Origin: Verrucomicrobiota bacterium | GTDB lineage: Bacteria; Verrucomicrobiota; Verrucomicrobiia; Verrucomicrobiales; Akkermansiaceae | NCBI GenBank assembly: GCA_027619375.1 | Contig: JAQCFL010000002.1 | Coordinates: forward strand, 1,663 to 65,662 | Length of the DNA: 64,000 bases | Reading direction: 5' to 3' | Part shown: piece after piece, positions 19,834 through 36,008 of the stretch | Numbering within the stretch: position 1 is the first letter of the stretch | Layout of the letters: the number at the start of each line of letters is the position of its first letter | Notes under the pieces: generated by a model | Databases searched by the model: none | The model's input: only the letters and a program-made list of their open reading frames with translations | Told to the model about the DNA's origin: nothing | Program-made: the position numbers and the translations under genes

Positions 19834-20088
19834 TTAGTTGGCCTCGGCGAGGGCGACGTTGACGCGGCGGCCGTTGCGGTCGAAGAAGACATTGCCTTCC
19901 ACGAGGGCGAAGATGGTGTGGTCCTTGCCGATGCCGACGTTGGCGCCGGGGTGCCACTTGGTGCCACGCTGACGGAGGATGATGTTGCCGGGAATGACAA
20001 CTTCGCCGCCGAATTTTTTAACGCCGAGGCGCTTGCTGCGGGAATCGCGACCGTTTTTGACGGAACCTTGTCCTTTTTTGTGGGCCAT
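19834..20088 (-). CDS. rpmA: 50S ribosomal protein L27
   Basis: 84 aa: [52 protein letters not shown]..., the canonical L27 sequence. Confidence 0.95.
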
Positions 20089-20127
20089 ATCGAGAGTGTT
20101 GGGAAAGGGGTTGGAGTGATCGGTGGA

Positions 20128-20442
20128 TCAACCGGCGATACCGGTGATTTCGAGTTTGGTGAGGGAGCGGCGGAAGCCTTTCGTTTTGTGGTAGCCCTTG
20201 CGGCGTTTGAATTTGAAGGCGACGCCTTTTTTGCCGCGGAACTGATCGACGACCTTGGCGGTGACGGTGGCTCCATCGACGAAGGGTGTGCCCACCTTGG
20301 TGGCGGTGCCATCGTTGACGAGAAGGATCTCGACGAAGCGGATGTCGTCATCGACATCGACGGCGAGTTTCTCGACATCAATTTTGTCGCCTTCCTGCAC
20401 GCGGTATTGCTTACCGCCGGTTTTGATCACTGCGTAGGACAT
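20128..20442 (-). CDS. rplU: 50S ribosomal protein L21
   Basis: An internal ATG at 20442 gives MSYAVIKTGGKQYRVQEGDKIDVEKL...FKFKRRKGYHKTKGFRRSLTKLEI, canonical L21. It lies directly upstream of rpmA. Confidence 0.93.
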   Translation of the reverse strand: MSYAVIKTGGKQYRVQEGDKIDVEKLAVDVDDDIRFVEILLVNDGTATKVGTPFVDGATVTAKVVDQFRGKKGVAFKFKRRKGYHKTKGFRRSLTKLEITGIAG

Positions 20443-20569
20443 CGGAAAAGTGGATTGGGTGTGAGCCGACACCCAAAAGGGGCGAGGCGGGCGGGGAATT
20501 CACCACAGGGGCCCCGGCGGAGCAAGAAATTTTTGCAAATCTGGTGCGTCGTCTCCAGACTGCGGGTCG

Positions 20570-24966: not shown

Positions 24967-26742
24967 TCATGGGGCGTGGGGGCTGGAGCGGAGAGAGAGG
25001 AGGTGCTCGGCGAGGCCGAGGACCTCGGCATCGGTGAGAGTTTCGTGTCCCGGCATGTCCGTGCCGGGGAGGCCGAATTTGGCGATGCGGGCGAGGGTTT
25101 CGCGGAGCGGGGGACCGTTCGGGGCGGGGTTGCTGAAGAGGAAGGGGCCGGCGTTGAGGTTGGCAGGGGGGCGTTGGAAGTGGCGGGCGAGGGGGCCGTC
25201 GCCGCGGCCGGCTTCCCCATGGCAGGCGGCGCAGTGGAGTGCGAAGAGGGTCGCCCCTTCGGCGGGTGGAGGATCGGAGGGGGTCCAGGCGGCGATGGTT
25301 TCCAAACGGGAGGACCACTCTTCGGGAGTGGTGTTGGTGAGGAAGGCGATCAGGTCGGCGCCGCGGTCATCGTCCCAGAGCCGGAGGTAGGGGGGCATGA
25401 CGCTGCCGGGGCTGAGCAATTGGGGATGGAGGAAGTGGAGTTCCATCCATTTTGGGGAGCGGCGCAAACCGACCTGCAGCAGATCCGGTCCCTGTCTGCG
25501 GTTTCCAATCAGGACCGGGGCGTCCTGAAGGATCTTCGGGATGGATCGGCTGGGGCCCCAGAGCAACTCGTCGGCGGTGCCGGGACGCACGTAGCGGGAA
25601 TGGCAATGGATGCAGCCCTCGGAGAGATAGACGGCTTGGCCGCGGGAAACGGGGCTGGCATTGGTTGAGGGGGGCGTGGCGAGGCTCCAAGCGAGGAGCG
25701 CGGACAAGACCACGAGAACGACGGCCGGGTGTCTGCCGGGCAGTCTGAACCGGTGACAGAGCACGGCGGCCGCACCGAGCCAAACCGCGAAGACGAACCA
25801 AGGGGGGACGAGGTGGAGGTTTGCGGCCATGCCGACGCCGAGGGCGGAGCCGATCCAACCGGCGAGGCCGAAGAGTCGCGCGGCGAGGGGGAGCGCTTCG
25901 CGGCTGGTGCGGGCTCCGGAGAGGCAGCCGGGATAGACCACGAGGGCCACGGAATAGAGGGAGACTCCGAGAGGATAGAGCCAACCGGAGAGGGCGGCGA
26001 AGGCCGGTTGACCGACCCACTGCGAGGCGACCGAGAGCAGGGCGAGGGCGGGCAAGAGGACGCGGAGCAGCCAGCCCCGATCGAGAGCCAGGCCGGCGGC
26101 GAGGGCTCCGAAGAAATGGAGGGCGGCATTGCGCCAGAGCAGATCGCTGCCCCAGGTGGCCTTTTTCAGAACGGCGGTGTGTTGGATGATGTAGAAGGCG
26201 GCCGAGTCGAGCCACACGAGGGACAGGAAGAGGAACACGATGAACCAGAACTGGCGGGGGATGGTCGGGGTGGAGGCTGACTTTGGGGGACCGAAATCGT
26301 TGTTCCGCGGGACGGTGGGGACGAACACCGCAGCGAGCCCGGCGAGGAGCACCACGGCGCCGGTCTGCCACTGCCAGGTGGCTTGGAAGAAGGCGGAGAT
26401 ATTGCAGAAGGCATAGGCCAGACCGGTGCCGAGGCCTGCCACCAGTCCGGCGCGTCGGGGGGACACCGTTTGACGCAGGGTGCCGGCGAGGGTGACGAGA
26501 GCGGTGAAACCGCAGACGAGAAAGCCGATCCGCAGGAGGGTGCGAGCCCCGAAGGTTTCCACCAGGCGAGGGGTGAGGACACAGCCGAGGACGCCGCCCA
26601 GGCCCATGGCGGCCATGAGGATCTTCAGGCCGTGGCCGGCATCCTCTCCGAGGGCGCTTCCCTCCAGAAAAGCAAACTGCGCGAAGAGCCGGAAGTAGCC
26701 ATAGATCGCGGTGATGGCGAAGCCGGTGCGGAGCATGTTCAT
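24967..26742 (-). CDS. Fusion protein: MFS-like polytopic membrane domain + CcoO(FixO)-like mono-haem domain + second class-I cytochrome c domain
   Basis: The ATG at 26742 (MNMLRTGFAIT...) overlaps the upstream stop (ATGA). About 11 hydrophobic helices include the MFS-motif-A-like LTPRLVETFGARTLLRIG. Next comes CIHCHSRYVRP...GPDL...W..HF.HP...SPGSVMPPY, the CcoO signature as I recall it. The C-terminus has LFALHCAACHGEAGRGDG...GTDMP. The 157 upstream codons of ORF 24967..27213 were rejected as Arg/Pro-rich. Confidence 0.8.
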   Translation of the reverse strand: MNMLRTGFAITAIYGYFRLFAQFAFLEGSALGEDAGHGLKILMAAMGLGGVLGCVLTPRLVETFGARTLLRIGFLVCGFTALVTLAGTLRQTVSPRRAGLVAGLGTGLAYAFCNISAFFQATWQWQTGAVVLLAGLAAVFVPTVPRNNDFGPPKSASTPTIPRQFWFIVFLFLSLVWLDSAAFYIIQHTAVLKKATWGSDLLWRNAALHFFGALAAGLALDRGWLLRVLLPALALLSVASQWVGQPAFAALSGWLYPLGVSLYSVALVVYPGCLSGARTSREALPLAARLFGLAGWIGSALGVGMAANLHLVPPWFVFAVWLGAAAVLCHRFRLPGRHPAVVLVVLSALLAWSLATPPSTNASPVSRGQAVYLSEGCIHCHSRYVRPGTADELLWGPSRSIPKILQDAPVLIGNRRQGPDLLQVGLRRSPKWMELHFLHPQLLSPGSVMPPYLRLWDDDRGADLIAFLTNTTPEEWSSRLETIAAWTPSDPPPAEGATLFALHCAACHGEAGRGDGPLARHFQRPPANLNAGPFLFSNPAPNGPPLRETLARIAKFGLPGTDMPGHETLTDAEVLGLAEHLLSLRSSPHAP

Positions 26743-27161
26743 CCCTGTAAAACCCTTTCCAACAGTTGTTTGTGCAATCCGATGGCCTGGAGGCCGCCCA
26801 CCACGAGGTCGGTTGCGGCGACCGGGAGCCAGGCCGTCTCGAGGCTGCCGCGGGCCACGCTGAGGGCCACGAAAAGGGCCACGGCGCAGCGGGCCACGGC
26901 GGTGATGAGCCATTGCATGCGCCAGGCGGCGACCGCGTTGGCGTCGCGGGGGAGGCCGCCCACCAGAAAGTAGGAAAGACCGACGGAGAAGACGAAGACG
27001 CCGACCCACGAGAGGAAGATGTTGGGGCCTGCCGGTTCGCTGATTCCCATGAGGCGCAAGGTTTGCAGGGGGAGGAACAGGAGGAGGAGTCCGGTGAGGG
27101 AGTCCATCAGGCCGACGAGGCGCTGGGCCGGAAGAAGAAGTCTGGGAAACTTGTCTTGCAT
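26739..27161 (-). CDS. 140-aa four-helix membrane protein of unknown function
   Basis: Its ATG directly abuts the TAA of the upstream gene (27159-27164). There are four hydrophobic segments and no motif was recognised. Confidence 0.65.
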   Translation of the reverse strand: MQDKFPRLLLPAQRLVGLMDSLTGLLLLFLPLQTLRLMGISEPAGPNIFLSWVGVFVFSVGLSYFLVGGLPRDANAVAAWRMQWLITAVARCAVALFVALSVARGSLETAWLPVAATDLVVGGLQAIGLHKQLLERVLQG

Positions 27162-28424
27162 TTAATTGTTCGCTGCGGATTGAGGTTCGTGTGGCTTGAG
27201 GAGTCCGAGCCACCAGCGGGCGCTGACGATCAGGAGGACGAGGCCGCAGAGGAGGCGCAGGGTGTAGAGGCTCGTCTTGGTTGGGTTGGGGTGAAGGATC
27301 CAGGCGGGGTCGGCGGCTTCAAAGAGGCCGGCGCTTGCCATGAGCACGACGTAGCCGAGGGTGGCGCCGTTCCACCACCAGAAGCCCGTCGCCAAGGGCC
27401 GCGTCCCGCCGGTGAGGACCACGGCGAGGAAGAGCAGGAAGGTGCTGGTGAACCCGGCCATGGCGAAGTGGGCGTGCGCGACGAGGACGTTGGTGAATTT
27501 GGCGGCATCGAGCAGCCCCGGCAGGAAGGTGAGCCAGCCGGTGAGGATGAGCAGGGCGAGCCAGGCCAGGGAGGCGGAGAGCCAGCGGCGTTCCAGAGGG
27601 CTCCAGGAATAGCGTCGATAGAAGATCGGGAGGAGGGCGATCCAGGCGAGAAGGAGGCCGAGGCCAATCCATTGGGAGGGTTCGCGGTGACTGATCACGG
27701 TCCGCTCGAGGAAGGGAACGGCGGCGAGTTGGAGGCCGAAGACGATCCAATAGAGGGACTCTCGCCCCGCGCCTTCGGCCCTCCGCCGACCGAGGGAGCG
27801 GGGCACGAGGAGGAGCAGGAAGACGACGGACAAGCTGGAGCCGAGGAGGCTGGCCCCGGTCGGGCCGCCGCTCTCGGGGTTGACGGGAGGATAGACCTCC
27901 GGGCGGGCGGCGAGGGCGAGGAGCACCGGCACGGCGCCGAGGGCCAGGAGGCCAAGGAGATGCGCCTTGCCGCGGCGGCCGCGAAACCAGGCGGCGGCGA
28001 GGACGCCCCAAAGCAGGACCATGGCCCCGAGGAAGAAGCCGAGGCTGCGCCCGGACCAGTCCAGAAAGATCTTGCCGCTGGTCTGGCCATCCAGCCAGGC
28101 GAGGGAACCCGCCAGCAGGGCGGCGGACCAGGCCCAGATTGCCGTGAGGCCCCAGCTGGTGAGGCCGATGGCATCCACCCCGTAAAGCCGGAACAGCCAG
28201 GCGACCAAGGGGAGGCTGGTCCAGCCGAAGAGGTGCAGGTTCAGGTGCAGGGGCATCCAGCGTCCATAGGTCCAGGTGCCCAGCAGCCCGCCGCCGGTTG
28301 GGGCGACGAGGAGCAGGGCCAGGAGGAAACCCACGGCATTTGCGGCGACCAGCCAGAAGAAGGCATGCCTCAGGGCGGTCCTGATGGAAGCGTTCTCGGG
28401 CGGGAAATTGGGGGAACTCAACAT
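27162..28424 (-). CDS. cbb3 oxidase subunit I (CcoN)/NorB-like haem-copper-oxidase-superfamily membrane protein lacking recognisable CuB/FeB histidine ligands
   Basis: 420 aa, ~12 TM. GRWMPLHLNLHLFGW resembles the CcoN helix-II GRLRPLHTNAVIFAF. FTNVLVAHAHFAMAGF carries the helix-X HxH haem ligand pair. LYTLRLLCGLVLL resembles the CcoN C-terminus FYVIRLLGG. Only one His (H246) lies between residues ~160 and 316, where one His plus an HH pair is expected. These comparisons are from memory of family consensus. Confidence 0.7.
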   Translation of the reverse strand: MLSSPNFPPENASIRTALRHAFFWLVAANAVGFLLALLLVAPTGGGLLGTWTYGRWMPLHLNLHLFGWTSLPLVAWLFRLYGVDAIGLTSWGLTAIWAWSAALLAGSLAWLDGQTSGKIFLDWSGRSLGFFLGAMVLLWGVLAAAWFRGRRGKAHLLGLLALGAVPVLLALAARPEVYPPVNPESGGPTGASLLGSSLSVVFLLLLVPRSLGRRRAEGAGRESLYWIVFGLQLAAVPFLERTVISHREPSQWIGLGLLLAWIALLPIFYRRYSWSPLERRWLSASLAWLALLILTGWLTFLPGLLDAAKFTNVLVAHAHFAMAGFTSTFLLFLAVVLTGGTRPLATGFWWWNGATLGYVVLMASAGLFEAADPAWILHPNPTKTSLYTLRLLCGLVLLIVSARWWLGLLKPHEPQSAANN

Positions 28425-28425
28425 G

Positions 28426-29094
28426 TTAGGAGAGGATGCGGCCGTCCTTCATTTCCACGACCCGGTCACAGCGGTCGGCGAGGGAGCGGTCGTGGGTGGC
28501 CATGATGAGGGTGCGGCCGGCGCTTCTGACGAGATCGACGAGAAGGGCGAAAACCTGTTCGCGACTGTCCTCGTCGAGGGCCCCGGTGGGTTCGTCGGCG
28601 AGGATGAGTTGGGGATCGTTCATGAGGGCCCGGCAGAGGGCGGTGCGCTGGCGCTCCCCACCGGAGAGATCCTGGATGCGGTTTCCCAGTCTGTGTTGGA
28701 GTCCGGTGGCGGTGGTGAGGCGGGCGAGTCGAAGGCGGGCCTCACCCTTGGGAAGTCCTGCGGCGATGGCGGGAATCAGGCAGTTCTCGGTGAGGGTGAG
28801 GTCGGCGATGAGATTGTGGAGCTGGAAGACGAGTCCGATCCGGCTGCGGAGGAGGAGGGTGAGATCGCGGTCGCGGTGGAGGGATTGGCCGTCGTGGAGG
28901 ACCTGCCCCCTGGTGGGTTGATCCAGTCCGGCGATGAGATGGAGGAGGGTGGATTTGCCGCAACCGGAGGGTCCACAGATGGCGACGAGGCTGCCGCGTT
29001 GGACCTCGAGGTCGACCTCGTGGAGGACGGGGATTTTCCCGTTCTCGTAGCTCATGGAAACGCCACGGGTTTGCACTTGGGGTGGTTGGCTCAT
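28426..29094 (-). CDS. ABC transporter ATP-binding protein (MacB/LolD-type)
   Basis: 222 aa with Walker A GPSGCGKST, signature LSGGERQR, Walker B LILADEPT and an H-loop ATHD. Confidence 0.9.
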   Translation of the reverse strand: MSQPPQVQTRGVSMSYENGKIPVLHEVDLEVQRGSLVAICGPSGCGKSTLLHLIAGLDQPTRGQVLHDGQSLHRDRDLTLLLRSRIGLVFQLHNLIADLTLTENCLIPAIAAGLPKGEARLRLARLTTATGLQHRLGNRIQDLSGGERQRTALCRALMNDPQLILADEPTGALDEDSREQVFALLVDLVRSAGRTLIMATHDRSLADRCDRVVEMKDGRILS

Positions 29095-30203
29095 TCGAAT
29101 CGCAGGGCGTTGGCGGCGCGGATCCTCATGCCGTAGATGGCGGGGTAGAGGGCTCCGAGCATGCCGGTGAGGACGGCGAGGAAGACGACCACGCCGATCA
29201 TGGAGGGTTCGAGGTGGACCTCCACATAGCCCTGGAGGAAGGGCAGGGACTTGAGGAGACCGAGGGCGAGGCGGCTGAGGAGGATGCCGACCACCGCACC
29301 TAGCAGGGCCACGACGATGGACTCCCCGACGATGAGGCCGGCGATCTGCCAGCGGGAGAACCCGCAGACGCGGAGGATGGCGAGTTCGCGGATGCGGCCG
29401 AAGACGGCCATGATCATGGTGTTGGCGACGCTGAGCCCGCCGAGGAGGAAGGCGCAGCCGCCCACCACCCAGGCGGTGATTTTCAGGATGCGGAACTGGG
29501 AGTAGTTCTGGCTGAACTCCTCGTTTTCGAGGGCGGTGAGGTTTTCGTGATTGGTTTGCACGTAGTCCTTGAACTGTCGGCGTTGGTTTTCCTCCCGGAG
29601 TTTCACCATGACCACGGAGGCGACCCCCTCCTTTCGGAAGAAGCGTTGGGCGAGAGGGAGGGGCATGAAGACCCCGCCGTCTTCGAAGCCGTTGGCGGTC
29701 CGGATGACTCCGGCGACCTCGAACTCAGCTCGTCCGATCGGCACACGCTCCCCGGCACCAACCTTGAGGAAGGCTGCGGCCCGCTCCCCGAGGAGGACGC
29801 GTTCACTGTCGTTGGTGAACCGGTCGGAAGCACCCTGCAGCCATTCCGCGTCGCGGAGGCGGGCTGCCTCGGGGCCGACCCCGAAGCAGGTGATGACCGG
29901 GTTGTTCTCGCTGGAGACGATGCCGAAGAGGACCGCCTCGGCGTTCTGGACGAAGGGGAGGTCCTCAAACTCGGCGACCGTCTCCACCGGGACGTTGCTG
30001 AAGAAGAGGTCGGAGACGTTGCGTTCGAAGACGATCAGTTCGCTGTCGCTGCTAAGAATGCGTTCGAACATCCGGATCGCCCCGCCGAGCAGGGTCACCA
30101 CGCAAAGCATGGTGGCCACCCCGAAGGAGATACCAACCGCCCCGATGGTGGTGCGGATGGCGTGGCACCGGAGGTTGAGGAGGATGAGGCCGAGGAGGGA
30201 CAT
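29091..30203 (-). CDS. ABC transporter permease, FtsX/MacB-type with periplasmic core domain
   Basis: 370 aa with one N-terminal TM, a ~220-aa extracytoplasmic domain, then three C-terminal TMs (FtsX-like: RELAILRVCGFSRWQIAGLIVGES...). There is an ATGA overlap with the ATPase gene. Confidence 0.85.
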   Translation of the reverse strand: MSLLGLILLNLRCHAIRTTIGAVGISFGVATMLCVVTLLGGAIRMFERILSSDSELIVFERNVSDLFFSNVPVETVAEFEDLPFVQNAEAVLFGIVSSENNPVITCFGVGPEAARLRDAEWLQGASDRFTNDSERVLLGERAAAFLKVGAGERVPIGRAEFEVAGVIRTANGFEDGGVFMPLPLAQRFFRKEGVASVVMVKLREENQRRQFKDYVQTNHENLTALENEEFSQNYSQFRILKITAWVVGGCAFLLGGLSVANTMIMAVFGRIRELAILRVCGFSRWQIAGLIVGESIVVALLGAVVGILLSRLALGLLKSLPFLQGYVEVHLEPSMIGVVVFLAVLTGMLGALYPAIYGMRIRAANALRFE

Positions 30204-30206
30204 CGG

Positions 30207-30986
30207 TCAGCTCGCCACCGAGGTGAGGTGGGGGGTCTCGCGGGGTTGCATGGCGGGGACGGCCGTCCGGAGGCGATCGAGGAAGCGCCACTGAGCGGGG
30301 GAGCCGGGTAGCTGAGAGACCGTTTTGTCTCCCAGCCGGTTGAGGCGTTCGATCAGTTGCAGGGCACTCTGCGCACCGCCGGCGAGGACCAAATTCGGTC
30401 GACCGAGGGCCAGGTCCCGGCCGCCGGTCTTGCCGCTGGTGTCCACCGGGCCGACGAAGTCCTTGAGGTCGTCCGCGATCTGAAAGGCGAGACCGACGAA
30501 GAGGCAGTAGCGCTCGAGGAGCTGGATGAGGCGCGGGCTGCCCCCAGTGATGATGACCGGGAGGAGCGCGGCGAGCCGCAGGAGCGGGACGGTTTTCATT
30601 CGGGCGATGGCCAGAACGCCATGCGGTGACCGGGAGCTACGGCTATCATGCAGATCGCGGCTCTGGCCCCCGAGGAGACTGAAGACCCCGAGGGCTTGAT
30701 CGATGTAGCTGGTCGCCTTGAGGTGATCGGGCAGGCTCGCGAAGGCGATTCCCTCCCCAATGAGGGAGTAGGCCCGGGTGATCAGGGCGAGTCCGGCGAG
30801 GACCGCGGCGCTTTCACCGTGGGTCCGGTGGACGCAGGGTGCGTGCCGCCGGGTATCGGCGTCGTCCATGCAGGGCAGATCGTCGAAGATGAGGGAAGCC
30901 GTGTGGAAATACTCCACGGCGATGGCCAGTTTGAGGGCGTGATTTCTTTCCAGTCCTGCGGAGCGCCCCGAGGCGAAGCAGGCCAT
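30207..30986 (-). CDS. trans-Prenyl diphosphate synthase-like protein (FPP/GGPP synthase family); N-terminus apparently displaced into another frame
   Basis: The first Asp-rich motif FDDLPCMDDADTRR and the second IADDLKD are present, with GKTGGRDLALGRPN downstream. Only ~30 residues precede the first motif. Plausible N-terminal sequence (DDLRALREAFRTGFDDTTEGDPVLVASLAHVLAHPG) is encoded in a different frame at ~31005-31115. Confidence 0.65.
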   Translation of the reverse strand: MACFASGRSAGLERNHALKLAIAVEYFHTASLIFDDLPCMDDADTRRHAPCVHRTHGESAAVLAGLALITRAYSLIGEGIAFASLPDHLKATSYIDQALGVFSLLGGQSRDLHDSRSSRSPHGVLAIARMKTVPLLRLAALLPVIITGGSPRLIQLLERYCLFVGLAFQIADDLKDFVGPVDTSGKTGGRDLALGRPNLVLAGGAQSALQLIERLNRLGDKTVSQLPGSPAQWRFLDRLRTAVPAMQPRETPHLTSVAS

Positions 30987-31159
30987 GGCCCTGCCGAGGT
31001 GCCCGGGTGGGCGAGCACGTGGGCCAGGGAGGCGACCAGCACCGGATCACCTTCGGTGGTGTCGTCGAAACCGGTTCGAAATGCCTCGCGGAGGGCCCGG
31101 AGATCGTCCGGAGACGCTCTGGCTTTCGGAGTTGCGGGGTTGATGGATGGGACATGCGG

Positions 31160-31723
31160 TTAGCGGATGCTCCCTTTGAGGTTGAAGCGGATCGTGACGA
31201 TGGGATTCACGGTGAGGACGAGCAATTTGCGGATCTTGCCCAGTTTGAAATCCTGGTGATCGATGCGCACGGTGCCAGACACTTGGAGGTTGCTGCCGTC
31301 GCGGACAGTGGTCACCGGGAACTGGATGATTTTTCTGACTCCGTGGATGCGGAGGGTCCCCTTGGCCCAGGTGCTGCCATCTTTGGCGGTGGCGAAGCCG
31401 CTGAGATTGAAGCTGCCGGAGGGCATGGCGGCGTGTTCCAGCCACTTGAGCATTTCGTCGTCGCGCTTCACATCGCCGGTGGGAAGGTTTTTGAAGTCCC
31501 AGCTGAGATCGACGGTCTTCGGGGTGGCGGAGTTGGCGTCGCCGGTGATTTTGATCTTATACTTGGTTAGCTTGGCGGTGAAGTCGTGGCCGGTGGCTTT
31601 GACATCGACGAGGATGGCGCTCTTGGCGGGATCGACGACGAACTCGGCTGCTTGGAGCGGCTGAGCGAGGACTCCGAGGGCGAAGGCCAGGGAGAGGAAT
31701 GGGGGAGACAATGGTGATTTCAT
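31160..31723 (-). CDS. YceI-like periplasmic polyisoprenoid/lipid-binding protein
   Basis: 187 aa with a signal peptide (…ALGVLAQPLQA). F.VDPAKS.I...V.ATGHDFTAKL...G.L.IHGV....F...V... is the YceI beta-barrel pattern. Confidence 0.8.
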   Translation of the reverse strand: MKSPLSPPFLSLAFALGVLAQPLQAAEFVVDPAKSAILVDVKATGHDFTAKLTKYKIKITGDANSATPKTVDLSWDFKNLPTGDVKRDDEMLKWLEHAAMPSGSFNLSGFATAKDGSTWAKGTLRIHGVRKIIQFPVTTVRDGSNLQVSGTVRIDHQDFKLGKIRKLLVLTVNPIVTIRFNLKGSIR

Positions 31724-32327: not shown

Positions 32328-32423
32328 AGCTGGTCGTTCGGAGTCGATTGTAACGGGGGATGTTCAAATTAAATTTTGCGCATTGCTGAAAAAAAGGGAG
32401 CTTCGGACGCCCCATCCCATGCC

Positions 32424-33380
32424 ATGGCCCGGAGATACGCGAACAACCATCCCATGCCCCGCCACGGGCCCCTGCAGATTTTGAAATGGAAGCTGGGGAT
32501 GTCCCGGCGGGAGGCCCCTGCCGTTCCTGATGCTCCGGACACACCGGCGGCGTGGATGGCGGTGGAGGAGTCGAGACTGGAGGCGCCGCCCATGTCCACC
32601 TGGCAGTTGACCTGGCTCGGGCATGCCTCGTGGCTTCTGCAACTGGGTGGGGCAAACCTGCTCATTGATCCGGTCTTTTCCGAATACTGTGCTCCGGTGC
32701 GCATCCCGAGCTTGCGGCGTCAGCAGGGTCCCGGCGTGCTGCCGGGGGGACTTCCCGGAATCGATGGGGTGTTGCTGACCCACAGCCACTATGATCATTT
32801 GGATCTGCCGACCTTGCGGAACCTCCCGGGAAATCCGCCACTGGTGGTGCCGGAGGGTCATCGGGAATGGCTGAGGGGCAAAGGCTTTGGGGACGTCACC
32901 GAGTTGGCTTGGGGCGACTCCTGTGCGCTCGGCAGGGGTCTCACCGTGCACGCCACCCCGGCGCAACATTTCACGGCCCGGACGCCGTTTGACCGTGACC
33001 GGGGGCATTGGTGTGGGTGGGTGGTGGAGGGCGGAGGGATGCGGATCTATTTCGCGGGAGACACGGGGTATGCACCGCTCTTCGGGGACATTGCGCGGCG
33101 GCATGCCGCGCTGGATCTGGCCGTGTTGCCGATTGGAGCCTATGCCCCGCGCTGGTTGATGCGTCCGATCCATTTGGATCCGGAAGAGGCGGTGCGGGCG
33201 CATCTGGAGCTTGGCCCGCGTTGTTCGGTGGCCTCGCATTGGGGGACCTTCCGTTTGACCGACGAGGCGCTGGGGGAGCCACCGATCTGGCTGGCCCGGG
33301 CCTGTGATGCTGCCGGGGTGGCGCGGAAGGACTTTCGGGTCCTGAAGGTGGGGGAGACGCTCAGCGGGGAGGAGGTCTGA
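32424..33380 (+). CDS. MBL-fold metallo-hydrolase (NAPE-PLD-like)
   Basis: Motifs are WLGHASWLLQLGG, LLIDPVF, the metal motif THSHYDHLD, and FAGDTGY. The start could be 32424 (ATG) or the track start 32376. Confidence 0.8.
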   Translation: MARRYANNHPMPRHGPLQILKWKLGMSRREAPAVPDAPDTPAAWMAVEESRLEAPPMSTWQLTWLGHASWLLQLGGANLLIDPVFSEYCAPVRIPSLRRQQGPGVLPGGLPGIDGVLLTHSHYDHLDLPTLRNLPGNPPLVVPEGHREWLRGKGFGDVTELAWGDSCALGRGLTVHATPAQHFTARTPFDRDRGHWCGWVVEGGGMRIYFAGDTGYAPLFGDIARRHAALDLAVLPIGAYAPRWLMRPIHLDPEEAVRAHLELGPRCSVASHWGTFRLTDEALGEPPIWLARACDAAGVARKDFRVLKVGETLSGEEV

Positions 33381-33421: not shown

Positions 33422-34732
33422 ATGGAAGACATGTTGCCGCAGGAGATCATCAGGAGGAAGAGGGATGGGGCGAAGCTGAGTCCGGAGGAGATTCGGTTTT
33501 TTGTGCGGGGGATCGCGGATGGCTCGGTGGGGGAGGGGCAGATTGGCTCGTTTGCGATGGCGGTGTTCTTCCGGGGGATGGAGATGGAGGAGCGGGTGGT
33601 GTTGACCGAGGCGATGCGGGACTCGGGTGCGGTGTTGCGGTGGGAGGGTCTCGACGGGCCGGTTCTGGACAAGCATTCCACGGGAGGGGTGGGGGACTGC
33701 ACCTCGCTCATTCTTGGTCCGGTGGTGGCCGCGTGTGGCGGGTTCGTGCCGATGATTTCGGGGCGGGGCCTGGGCCATACCGGGGGGACCTTGGACAAGC
33801 TGGACTCCATTCCCGGCTATCGGACCTCGCCGGAGGAGGCTGATTTCAAGCGGGTTGTGAAGGAAGTGGGTGTGGCCATCATCGGGCAGACGGCCGCCCT
33901 GGCCCCGGCCGACAAGCGCTTCTATGCGGTGCGGGACGTGACCGCCACGGTGGAGTCGATCGACCTGATCACCGCCTCGATCCTTTCCAAGAAACTGGCG
34001 GAGGGCCTGGACGGCTTGGTGATGGATGTGAAGACCGGATCGGGGGCCTTCATGCCGACCTACGAGGATTCCCGTCGTTTGGCGGAGAGTATTGTGGGGG
34101 TGGCGACGGGGGCGGGGGTGAGGACGACGGGGATGCTTACCGACATGAATCAGCCTCTGGCGTCCTGTGCGGGAAACGCGCTGGAGGTGTTGGAGTGTGT
34201 TCGCTTGCTCAGAGGGGAGCTGGGGGCCGGCCGGCTGCTCGAGCTCAGCATCCGGCTTTCCGCGGAGTTGGTTGGGCTGGGTGGATTGGGAGAGGACGCG
34301 GAGGGGATGGTGCGGGAGGCGCTCGCCTCCGGCGAGGCGGCGGAGCGCTTTGGCCGCATGGTGGCCGCGCTGGGTGGGCCGGTTGATTTTGTGGAACGGG
34401 CCGAATTCCATTTGCCGGAGGCTCCGGTGGTGAAGGCGGTCGAGGCCGGGGAGGAGGGGAGGCTGACCGGGGTGGAGACCCGGGAGCTGGGTCTGGCCGT
34501 GGTGGAGCTGGGTGGGGGTCGGCGGCAGGCCGAGGATAGCATTGATTACGCGGTGGGTCTGAGCGGCTTTTTGCCGGTGGGCGCGGCGATCGAGGTCGGG
34601 CAGGCGCTCTGCCTGGTGCATGCCCGGAGCGAGGACGACTGGGAGCAGGCGGCCCGGCGGATCAGGGCGGCCCATCGTGTGGGGGCCGGTGGTGCTGACC
34701 CCGGACCGGTGGTGCAGGAGCTGTTGCGATAG
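33422..34732 (+). CDS. deoA: Thymidine (pyrimidine-nucleoside) phosphorylase
   Basis: 436 aa: [26 protein letters not shown]...[10 protein letters not shown]...[20 protein letters not shown], canonical DeoA motifs. Confidence 0.9.
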
Positions 34733-34784
34733 AAATACCGAGAGGGCGTTTTCCTTTGTCTGCGGTGCGGGTTAGAAGAGGCGC

Positions 34785-35504
34785 ATGGCCACACCGCACA
34801 TCGAGGCGCGAGCAGGGGATTTCGCGGAAACCTGTCTGTTGCCGGGGGATCCACTGCGGGCCAAATACATCGCGGAGACCTTTCTGGACGAAGTGCGGCC
34901 GGTGAACGGGGTGCGCAACATGCTGGGGTTCACGGGGCGCTATCGGGGGACGCCGGTTTCGGTGATGGGCAGTGGGATGGGGATTCCGTCCATCTCGATC
35001 TATGCGAAGGAATTGATCACGGACTACGGGGTGAAGAACCTGATCCGGGTGGGGAGCTGCGGGGCGGTGGGCAGGGAGGTCGGGCTGCGGGACATCATTC
35101 TTGGGATGGGGGCCTGCACCGATTCCGGGGTGAACCGGGCCCGTTTCGGGGGGATGGACTATGCGGCGGTGGCGGACTTCGATCTGTTGCGCCGGGCGGT
35201 GGAGGGGGCGGGACGCCTCGGGCTGCAGGCGCGGGTGGGGAACCTCTTCTCGGCGGACCTCTTCTACGCGCCGGATCCCGGGGTTTATGACACCATGGAA
35301 CGGATGGGGGTGCTGGCGGTGGAGATGGAAGCGGCGGGACTCTATGGTTGTGCGGCGGAGTTCGGGGCGCGGGCCCTGGCGGTCTGCACGGTGTCGGATC
35401 ACCTTCGAACCGGGGAGAGACTTTCGTCGGGGGAGCGGGAGTGCGGTTTTGCGGACATGCTGAAGATTGCCCTGGAGCTTTGTGCTGCGGGAGGCTGCGC
35501 CTGA
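34785..35504 (+). CDS. deoD: Purine nucleoside phosphorylase, DeoD type
   Basis: 239 aa: [34 protein letters not shown]...[20 protein letters not shown]...[10 protein letters not shown]. Confidence 0.9.
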
Positions 35505-35603
35505 AGGGGGCCGTCTTAACAACTTGGACAACGACAATTTGGGGGCTGGGGGGAGGTGCTTGCAACTTTACAGTTCGGGACGGGGGAGCCTTAATCGGGA
35601 GGG

Positions 35604-36008
35604 ATGAGCGGGGAAGAGAAGCTGGAATTGGTCAGATTGGCGGCGGTTGCCGGCAAGGAGGCCTATGCCCCCTATTCGAAGTTTGGGGTGGGTGCGGTGC
35701 TGAAGGCCCGCGACGGGCGCTTGTTTTCGGCCTGCAACGTGGAGAACGCCTCGTATGGCCTGACCATTTGTGCGGAGCGGGCGGCGGTGTTCAAGGCGGT
35801 CTCGGAGGGAGTTCAATCCTTTGCATGTCTCGCCCTGAGCGTTCCCGGCGGGGGAGCTCCGTGTGGGGCCTGTCGGCAAGTACTCCGGGAGTTCGGGGCG
35901 GATCTGCCGATTTTTGTGGGAGACGAAAATGGTGAAATGCGCCGGGAGTTGAACCTGGCGAATTTGTTGCCCGACTCCTTCGGTCCCGAGAGCTTGAATT
36001 TCCCTTAA
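35604..36008 (+). CDS. cdd: Cytidine deaminase
   Basis: 134 aa with zinc ligand motifs CAERAA and PCGACRQ, preceded by APYSKFGVGA. Confidence 0.9.
   Translation: MSGEEKLELVRLAAVAGKEAYAPYSKFGVGAVLKARDGRLFSACNVENASYGLTICAERAAVFKAVSEGVQSFACLALSVPGGGAPCGACRQVLREFGADLPIFVGDENGEMRRELNLANLLPDSFGPESLNFP

Follow-up and report, generated by a model that had tools for sequence, protein, structure and literature searches.

A CcoN-related protein without most of the CuB site in a conserved lipid-transport-like cassette of Acidobacteriaceae and Verrucomicrobiota

What can a haem-copper oxidase (HCO) scaffold do once most of its CuB site is gone? The question is raised by a gene on contig JAQCFL010000002.1 of a Verrucomicrobiota bacterium from the family Akkermansiaceae, in a stretch of 64,000 nucleotides (the window, in whose numbering coordinates are given unless another locus is named). 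On the minus strand, positions 27162..28424 encode a 420-residue protein, designated pCcoN here, with 12 transmembrane (TM) helices and homology to CcoN, the core subunit of cbb3 oxidases; alignment indicates that it is a CuB-less member of this lineage. The departures from the CuB/FeB histidine signature that have been surveyed, in gNOR and NOD, are single-ligand substitutions, whereas the pCcoN branch loses most of the site. That a branch of this kind is strongly conserved and widespread suggests reuse of the scaffold for different chemistry, and its fixed link to a prenyl synthase, a major facilitator superfamily (MFS) domain, a type VII ATP-binding cassette (ABC) extractor and a YceI-like protein points to an undescribed envelope lipid/redox system. 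Literature searches of incomplete coverage found no description of a CuB-less CcoN family or of this operon.

Relation to the haem-copper oxidases

The pCcoN reading frame runs from an ATG at 28424 to a stop codon at 27162-27164 on the minus strand; the plus-strand translation of 27162..28424 is meaningless. Searches with the single window sequence give no match in Pfam, 16.6 bits to the cbb3 subunit I/II fusion model of NCBIfam (cut-off 1080) and, with phmmer against the PDB, nothing meaningful beyond one spurious TM peptide. Recognition by eye of a CcoN/NorB-like protein, as in the sequence-only reading that first drew attention to the gene, was non-trivial because these single-sequence Pfam and PDB searches are uninformative and profiles are needed. 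The peptides quoted in that reading are all present in the minus-strand translation: RHAFFWLVAANAVGFLLALLL (residues 19-39), GRWMPLHLNLHLFGW (54-68), FTNVLVAHAHFAMAGF (310-325) and LYTLRLLCGLVLL (386-398). Histidines occupy positions 20, 60, 64, 155, 246, 317, 319, 378 and 412, and His246 is, as had been noted, the only one among residues 160-316, with none between 155 and 246.

Family profiles reveal the ancestry of the protein. A PDB search with a profile of 30 pCcoN-family sequences (A1) returns CcoN of cbb3 oxidases only (8smr_E, E 2e-4; 9g6b_A, E 2.6e-3), with no sequence match to NorB. Comparison by hhalign of a larger family alignment, of 121 sequences, with seven genuine CcoN sequences taken from plasmids gives a probability of 96.5% (E 7e-10) in local mode and 98.6% (E 4.8e-15, 406 columns) in global mode, a significant similarity to HCO subunit I. 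The AlphaFold2 model of pCcoN (pLDDT 89.8, pTM 0.90) contains 12 TM helices, and Foldseek places CcoN first among its structural matches (E 5e-9, TM-score 0.70), with NorB second (E 1e-6, TM-score 0.65), followed by ba3, qNOR, bo3 and aa3. The Pfam COX1 model matches 10 of the 30 profile members weakly and the window protein not at all, and pCcoN fails the curated thresholds of both Pfam COX1 and NCBIfam ccoN. Profile searches, hhalign and the structural comparison together establish superfamily membership, and thereby bear out the proposal of an HCO subunit I homologue: pCcoN has the 12-TM subunit I fold, as modelled, and detectable homology, and its nearest branch, on the same sequence and model comparisons, is the C family (cbb3). 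It is the 12-helix core subunit of a distinct, C-family-derived HCO branch.

The likeness to cbb3 CcoN/CcoO (PDB 3MK7, 6XKW, 8SMR, 9G6B) extends from the fold and profile homology to individual motifs, namely the GR.xP.H.N haem b motif, the helix-X H-x-H and the TM12 RL.GG. R390 of pCcoN aligns with the Arg of this last motif, in agreement with the C-terminal resemblance to CcoN that had been pointed out from the sequence. At the same time pCcoN is ~55 residues shorter than CcoN, and differs from it most in the ligand set of the active site.

Haem ligands and the former CuB site

Three histidines of the window protein, H60, H317 and H319, lie in high-confidence columns opposite CcoN His60, His345 and His347, so that the claimed retention of haem-ligand histidines holds. 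H60 (codon 28245..28247, minus strand) stands within YGRWxPxHxN, in a block aligned to CcoN GRLRPLHTN, and is the counterpart of the low-spin haem b ligand. The H-A-H of TM10 (codons 317-319, 27468..27476, minus strand) falls in the highest-confidence alignment block, with H317 opposite the first and H319 opposite the second His of the CcoN helix-X H-V-H. We take the first of these to be Pseudomonas stutzeri His345, the proximal ligand of high-spin haem b3, and the second, presumably, is His347, a ligand of haem b. Both H60 and H317 occur in 121 of 121 family members. Position 319, in contrast, is H in 39, L in 54 and F in 28 of the 121, and the proposal of a helix-X pair ligating two haems therefore stands for the universal H317 and not, family-wide, for H319. 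The only universal haem ligands predicted by the alignment are thus H60 and H317. A further histidine, H20, is found in 119 of the 119 sequences in which the position is present and has no CcoN counterpart.

The helix-VI region is altered more deeply. Where CcoN has the WWYGHN segment bearing the helix-VI CuB ligand, the pCcoN family has an invariant loop and helix N-cap, Y178-PPVNPDT-GGPTGAS192; the GGPTGAS part (codons 186-192, 27849..27869, minus strand) caps TM6, and G186, G187, P188, G190 and S192 are each found in 121 of 121 sequences. P188 lies opposite the CcoN helix-VI CuB His (His207) in the hhalign alignment, in low-confidence columns, and columns of the same quality place L239 at the position of the CcoN cross-link Tyr. 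No conserved His other than H246 appears in TM5-TM7 of the 121 family members, which answers the concern that helix VI/VII ligands had been overlooked by eye, and no alternative conserved His or Tyr for an oxidase active site is seen in TM6-TM7.

His246 (codon 27687..27689, minus strand), part of an S-H motif in the TM7-TM8 periplasmic loop and conserved in 118 of 121 members, is the only possible remnant of the CcoN HH pair. It is aligned to the second His of that pair (His258) in low-confidence hhalign columns, and falls two residues after the HH motif in alternative, PDB-profile-based alignments; it may therefore descend from the HH motif. Loss of all three CuB/FeB histidines, as first suggested, is accordingly correct for the ligand set as a whole and less certain for this one position. 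Because the invariant H246 possibly represents one CuB-ligand position, what can safely be said from the alignments is that the cross-link Tyr is missing along with two or more of the three CuB/FeB ligands.

Unlike CcoN, then, pCcoN has no helix-VI CuB His, HH pair or cross-link Tyr, the residues by which the C family is recognized. Ettwig et al. describe a histidine sextet (two ligands of the low-spin haem, one of the high-spin haem and three of CuB/FeB) as "a signature for HCOs" (PMC3413370). Window pCcoN retains three or four of the six (H60, H317, H319 and possibly H246), and family-wide only H60, H317 and H246 are invariant. A broken sextet on an HCO scaffold is shared with NOD, in which one ligand is altered (PMC3413370), from His to Asn, and with gNOR; Murali et al. 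(2024) report that the three active-site His are kept in all HCO families save gNOR, which has one His-to-Asp change (PMC11214002). In NOD and gNOR, however, a single ligand differs, and both are still regarded as metal-binding proteins acting on NO, whereas pCcoN loses at least two of three ligands together with the helix segment of one of them, in a context unrelated to N-oxide metabolism. NorB/NorC of cNOR (PDB 3O0R) resembles the pCcoN system as a C-branch HCO without the Tyr cofactor and with a mono-haem c partner, but NorB retains its three FeB His and a conserved Glu, so that pCcoN shows the same His deficit against it, and the pCcoN partner is of the FixO type rather than NorC. The "N2O red" family of Murali et al. 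was also considered as an identity for pCcoN and is unlikely, being cNOR-related, tied to Flexibacter canadensis and conserved in its active-site His (PMC11214002). pCcoN is an HCO-superfamily branch that departs from the superfamily's defining ligand set and stands in a new system context.

Loss of the ligands is not accompanied by relaxed conservation. Conservation reaches 90% or more in about 116 columns of the family alignment, many of which hold polar residues of periplasmic loops, and window pCcoN matches 111 of the 116, its five deviations all being conservative. Invariant polar residues (S245-H246, D122, Y178, GGPTGAS, D306 and K309) cluster in the periplasmic loops around the former active site.

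The family falls into two subtypes. The first, which includes the window protein (Q114, R247, A307), has H319 and few loop His; the second has L/F319, and two or three of H114, H247 and H307 are present in 72 of its 82 members. With H246, these residues form a periplasmic His cluster, from which an O2 or NO reductase with a re-invented Cu or Fe site (loop His 114, 246, 247 and 307) could be imagined, a view that would also suit the JGI annotation of the protein as cbb3 subunit 1. It is very unlikely: the window protein, with its Q114, R247 and A307, has no cluster, no counterpart of the cross-linked Tyr exists, active-site His are conserved in every HCO family but gNOR (PMC11214002), and the operon content is unlike that of respiratory oxidase operons.

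As a separate observation, the split at positions 114, 247, 307 and 319 could reflect either a haem b ligand swap or a new periplasmic metal site. A search for a ligand compensating for L/F319 yielded no good candidate, since H247 and H307 co-vary with it only loosely and M322 is invariant regardless.

The conserved cassette

The main clue to pCcoN function is its conserved operon, a feature absent from the sequence-only reading. Synteny was followed by tblastn at 82 loci (L001-L082; 80 of the 383 loci of the species scan described below are listed). The order is prenyl synthase, MacB/LolCE-type permease, ABC ATPase, pCcoN, a 4-TM protein and an MFS-CcoO-cytochrome c fusion, and this six-gene core is found in essentially all 82 loci, in two phyla, with gaps only at contig ends (ATPase 82/82, permease 80/82, 4-TM protein 79/82, prenyl synthase 77/82). 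In the window, the genes at 28426-29094, 27162-28424, 26739-27161 and 24967-26742 abut or overlap by at most 4 nt, as fits translational coupling.

Immediately after the pCcoN stop codon begins the gene for the 4-TM membrane protein (26739..27161, minus strand; 140 aa), which has invariant D20, R91 and D118 in alignment A3 and no match in Pfam or NCBIfam. Its stop codon is overlapped by the start codon of the fusion gene (24967..26742, minus strand; 591 aa), whose product combines an MFS-fold N-terminal domain, a CcoO-like mono-haem c domain and a C-terminal cytochrome c domain. The first of these was recognized in an AlphaFold2 model of pLDDT 81 by Foldseek (E ~1e-4, to many MFS transporters including lipid transporters), and the others by Pfam (FixO 9.3e-21, 74.8 bits and thus above the gathering score, cut-off 29.6; Cytochrom_C 1.5e-14). 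The haem c sites, CIHCH with Met449 in the CcoO-like domain and CAACH with Met563 in the second c domain, are all invariant. In having a genuine FixO/CcoO haem c domain with another cytochrome c domain behind it, the fusion resembles the cbb3 partner subunit, and a mono-haem c CcoO beside CcoN is what the C family has, though here the domain is fused behind an MFS domain, unlike in cbb3, and separated from pCcoN by the 4-TM gene. Natural fusions join pCcoN to the 4-TM protein in representatives P0243, P0266, P0283, P0336 and P0364, and P0252 (1130 aa) additionally includes the MFS-CcoO-cytochrome c part; as Rosetta-stone evidence they support a physical complex of pCcoN, the 4-TM protein and the fusion. 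The MFS domain was also considered as a CcoA-type copper importer, a role set aside because the invariant residues of alignment A2 show no sign of the MxxxM/HxxxM motifs of CcoA (PMC6362234).

In place of the ccoQP/ccoGHIS genes of cbb3 operons, the cassette has genes for a prenyl synthase, an ABC extractor and YceI. The LolD/MacB/FtsE-like ATPase (28426..29094, minus strand; Pfam ABC_tran 1e-34) scores 4e-62 and 209.6 bits against the LolD equivalog TIGR02211, below its cut-off of 307.8. The MacB/LolCE-type (type VII) permease, with a periplasmic domain (29091..30203, minus strand; Pfam MacB_PCD 4.7e-19, FtsX 2.3e-15), scores 1.3e-20 and 73.7 bits against TIGR02212 lolCE (cut-off 362). LolCDE/MacB machines take lipidated substrates out of the outer leaflet and hand them to carriers in the periplasm. 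The cassette pair belongs to the same architecture class, with MacB_PCD and FtsX in the permease and LolD as the best match of the ATPase, but is not an orthologue of LolCDE, from which it differs in falling far below the equivalog cut-offs, in its single permease gene and in its presumed carrier, YceI rather than LolA.

The short-chain, CrtE/GGPP-type polyprenyl diphosphate synthase (30207..31155, minus strand; Pfam polyprenyl_synt 5.9e-35; NCBIfam FPPsyn/CrtE) has intact first and second aspartate-rich motifs (FARM/SARM). The small residue found at -5 in the CrtE-like DDLPCMDDADTRR motif of this enzyme suggests products of geranylgeranyl diphosphate (GGPP) length. First in the Verrucomicrobia-type cassette stands a YceI-like periplasmic lipid/polyisoprenoid-binding protein (31160..31723, minus strand; Pfam YceI 1.2e-16), which lies upstream of the cassette in 14 such loci, the window included; a divergent YceI (Pfam 1e-23) follows the cassette in ~36 mostly acidobacterial loci. 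YceI is encoded within 6 kb of the cassette in ~50 of the 82 loci.

A divergent two-component system resembling CusRS, CopRS or HprRS adjoins the cassette upstream in ~59 of the 82 loci (for example L053:2760-4316(-), L045:4264-4950(-) and L002:4432-6554(-)). It scores best, though below the cut-offs, against heavy-metal (CusRS/CopRS) and HprRS models, and in L002 it lies between a Cus/Czc-like resistance-nodulation-division (RND) efflux operon and the cassette.

Proposed function

These features suggest that pCcoN is probably part of a redox-active, HCO-derived haem complex that acts, at the periplasmic surface of the inner membrane, on a lipid-soluble substrate. Three features point to a redox-active haem protein: an intact relay of c-type haems, the invariance of H60 and H317, and the invariant polar residues around the former active site. 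Electrons would pass from the cytochrome c domain via the CcoO-like haem c and haem b to a mononuclear b3-type haem, the distal pocket of which may have been rebuilt from the periplasmic loops (S245-H246, D122, Y178, NPDTGGPTGAS, D306 and K309). With no binuclear centre and no Tyr, the complex would not be a conventional O2 or NO reductase. Most likely it would oxidise, reduce or redox-cycle either an isoprenoid lipid derived from GGPP or a lipid radical or peroxide. The lipid would be made by the GGPP synthase, with the MFS domain as flippase, the ABC pair as extractor and YceI as carrier; a pipeline of synthesis, flipping, extraction and carriage appears to be the most economical reading of the co-conserved genes.

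The name "pseudo-oxidase", given in the sequence-only reading, suggests a dead enzyme, yet dense conservation and the intact CcoO-like haem c partner argue for a new activity rather than decay. A related view, that pCcoN is an electron-transfer-only or structural relic, either a non-catalytic cytochrome b or a haem-free scaffold wiring the CcoO-cytochrome c fusion to the MFS and ABC parts, would explain the loss of the defining CuB ligands and Tyr and the variability of position 319, and the gene fusions support physical coupling to transporter-like partners. It is nonetheless unlikely, as H317, the counterpart of the proximal ligand of the catalytic haem, is present in 121 of 121 members, and invariant polar loop residues around the former active site are typical of a substrate or catalytic site and not of a passive wire.

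In logic, the proposed lipid-acting complex would yield an envelope redox/antioxidant lipid system akin to YceI(BcnA)-cytochrome b561(LcoA). BcnA, a YceI-family lipocalin, and the membrane cytochrome LcoA defend the cell envelope against lipid peroxyl radicals (PMC9113575). That pair and E. coli yceI-yceJ share with the cassette the linkage of a YceI-type isoprenoid/quinone binder to a membrane b-type cytochrome, and fusions of the two occur (PMC9113575). The resemblance would be one of functional analogy only: YceI is linked in both, but the cassette cytochrome appears HCO-derived and wired to c-type haems rather than a four-helix b561, and the cassette adds lipid synthesis, an MFS domain and an ABC extractor.

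The same connection lends itself to another explanation, a peroxidase-type detoxifier, in which the b3-type haem and a distal His246-Arg247 (His247 elsewhere) would pass electrons from cytochrome c to H2O2, lipid hydroperoxides or peroxyl radicals, in effect a membrane cytochrome c peroxidase on an HCO scaffold. Paired distal His and Arg residues are the hallmark of classical peroxidases, and S-H246-R247 occurs in window pCcoN; the CusRS/HprRS-like sensor adjoining the cassette in most loci and the tie of YceI to lipid-peroxyl defence (PMC9113575) are also in keeping with it. The placement of H246/R247 over the haem, however, rests on low-confidence alignment, position 247 is His in 85 of 121 members and Arg in only 27, and the prenyl synthase, MFS domain and ABC extractor are left unexplained unless the idea is joined with the lipid model. 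We consider a dedicated peroxidase improbable.

Several points also weigh against the proposed lipid-acting haem complex. The helix VI/VII equivalences (P188 with His207, H246 with His258) come from low-confidence columns, and haem binding by pCcoN is predicted from aligned histidines only. Since most members have L or F at position 319, that of the second haem b ligand, the two-haem wire is uncertain for the family as a whole. Neither a terpene cyclase nor a prenyl transferase, by which GGPP would be used, is encoded in the cassette, which makes the lipid substrate hypothetical. The window copy, with a frameshifted prenyl synthase and a missing MFS helix (described below), may not be fully functional, and the two-component system is not found beside the window cassette, the window having weak generic matches only, at 38.8-40.9 kb.

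A sharper version of the proposal is correspondingly tentative, and we hold it to be doubtful: pCcoN would be the first HCO-scaffold enzyme with a substrate other than O2 or an N-oxide, a cytochrome-c-driven, mononuclear-haem enzyme that redox-cycles or modifies a GGPP-derived lipid. If this is true, a new envelope lipid/redox pathway is common to Acidobacteriaceae and Verrucomicrobiota, and a respiratory oxidase has been exapted into lipid biochemistry.

Distribution and annotation

In a scan of one genome per species, relatives of pCcoN were found in 383 of 185,579 species. Most hosts are Acidobacteriaceae (Terracidiphilus, Edaphobacter, Granulicella, Occallatibacter), and the remainder are mainly Verrucomicrobiota (Akkermansiaceae, Luteolibacter, Verrucomicrobiaceae). 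A 90%-clustered database holds at least 756 relatives, and a hidden Markov model search of 1.84 billion 50%-identity representatives gives 488 matches at E <= 1e-3, 214 of them at E <= 1e-30. The family is compact and well apart from canonical CcoN, whose clusters number in the thousands and are not recruited. Cultured carriers include Edaphobacter modestus DSM 18101, Occallatibacter savannae AB23, strain AB60 and Verrucomicrobiaceae bacterium 227, and because cultured hosts carry the cassette the question of its function is directly testable.

Neither Pfam nor NCBIfam has a model for the family. NCBI names its members "hypothetical protein" and JGI "cytochrome c oxidase cbb3-type subunit 1", while the MFS-CcoO-cytochrome c fusion appears as "cbb3-type cytochrome c oxidase subunit II" and "cbb3-type subunit 2", respectively. 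Annotation as cbb3 is misleading: because public databases label pCcoN and its partner as cbb3 subunits, surveys of acidobacterial and verrucomicrobial oxidases could miscount the cassette as a high-affinity oxidase, and microaerobic respiration could be wrongly inferred in hosts that are abundant in soil, peat and freshwater. Trojan et al. found acidobacterial "cbb3" operons barely expressed at low O2 (PMC8407424); those operons, in Terriglobus roseus and Acidobacterium capsulatum, consist of N, O and an extra gene of unknown function (PMC8407424).

The window copy and its flanking genes

Two cassette genes of the window are anomalous. The main open reading frame of the prenyl synthase spans 30207-30986, and its N-terminal ~50 codons (…EGDPVLVASLAHVLAHPG) lie in another frame; tblastn comparison with the L002 and L001 orthologues puts the frame change near 30990-31000, right after the conserved HPG motif, which suggests a 1-nt indel arising from an assembly error or a real frameshift. 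In the MFS domain of the fusion, a segment of ~31 residues that forms one TM helix is missing after residue 82 (~26496), and with it G/L/G/T residues that are invariant or nearly so in the other 29 homologues. With one helix lost, the topology downstream should invert, and the window copy may thus be defective or mis-assembled.

These features could be taken to mean that the oddities of this metagenome-assembled cassette, pCcoN included, reflect pseudogenisation of a decaying locus, since both the displaced frame and the lost helix with its four (nearly) invariant residues are what decay would produce. For pCcoN this explanation is barely credible: the CuB-less features are family-wide across the 383 species genomes, the pCcoN frame is intact and matches 111 of the 116 highly conserved columns, and both anomalies may be assembly errors.

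Just upstream of the window cassette, and divergent from it, is a gene for a metallo-beta-lactamase-fold protein (32376-33380, plus strand; Pfam Lactamase_B_2 1.4e-46). Homologues occur in the cassette flanks (up to 8-10 kb) in 10 of the 82 loci, seven of which are among the ~14 Verrucomicrobia-type loci. Beyond it, an ordinary nucleoside-salvage cluster (33422-36008, plus strand) comprises, by translation only, thymidine-phosphorylase-like (33422-34732), DeoD-type purine nucleoside phosphorylase-like (34785-35504) and cytidine-deaminase-like (35604-36008) open reading frames. On the other side of the cassette, ribosomal proteins L21/L27, likewise assigned from translation only, are encoded at 19834-20472 on the minus strand.

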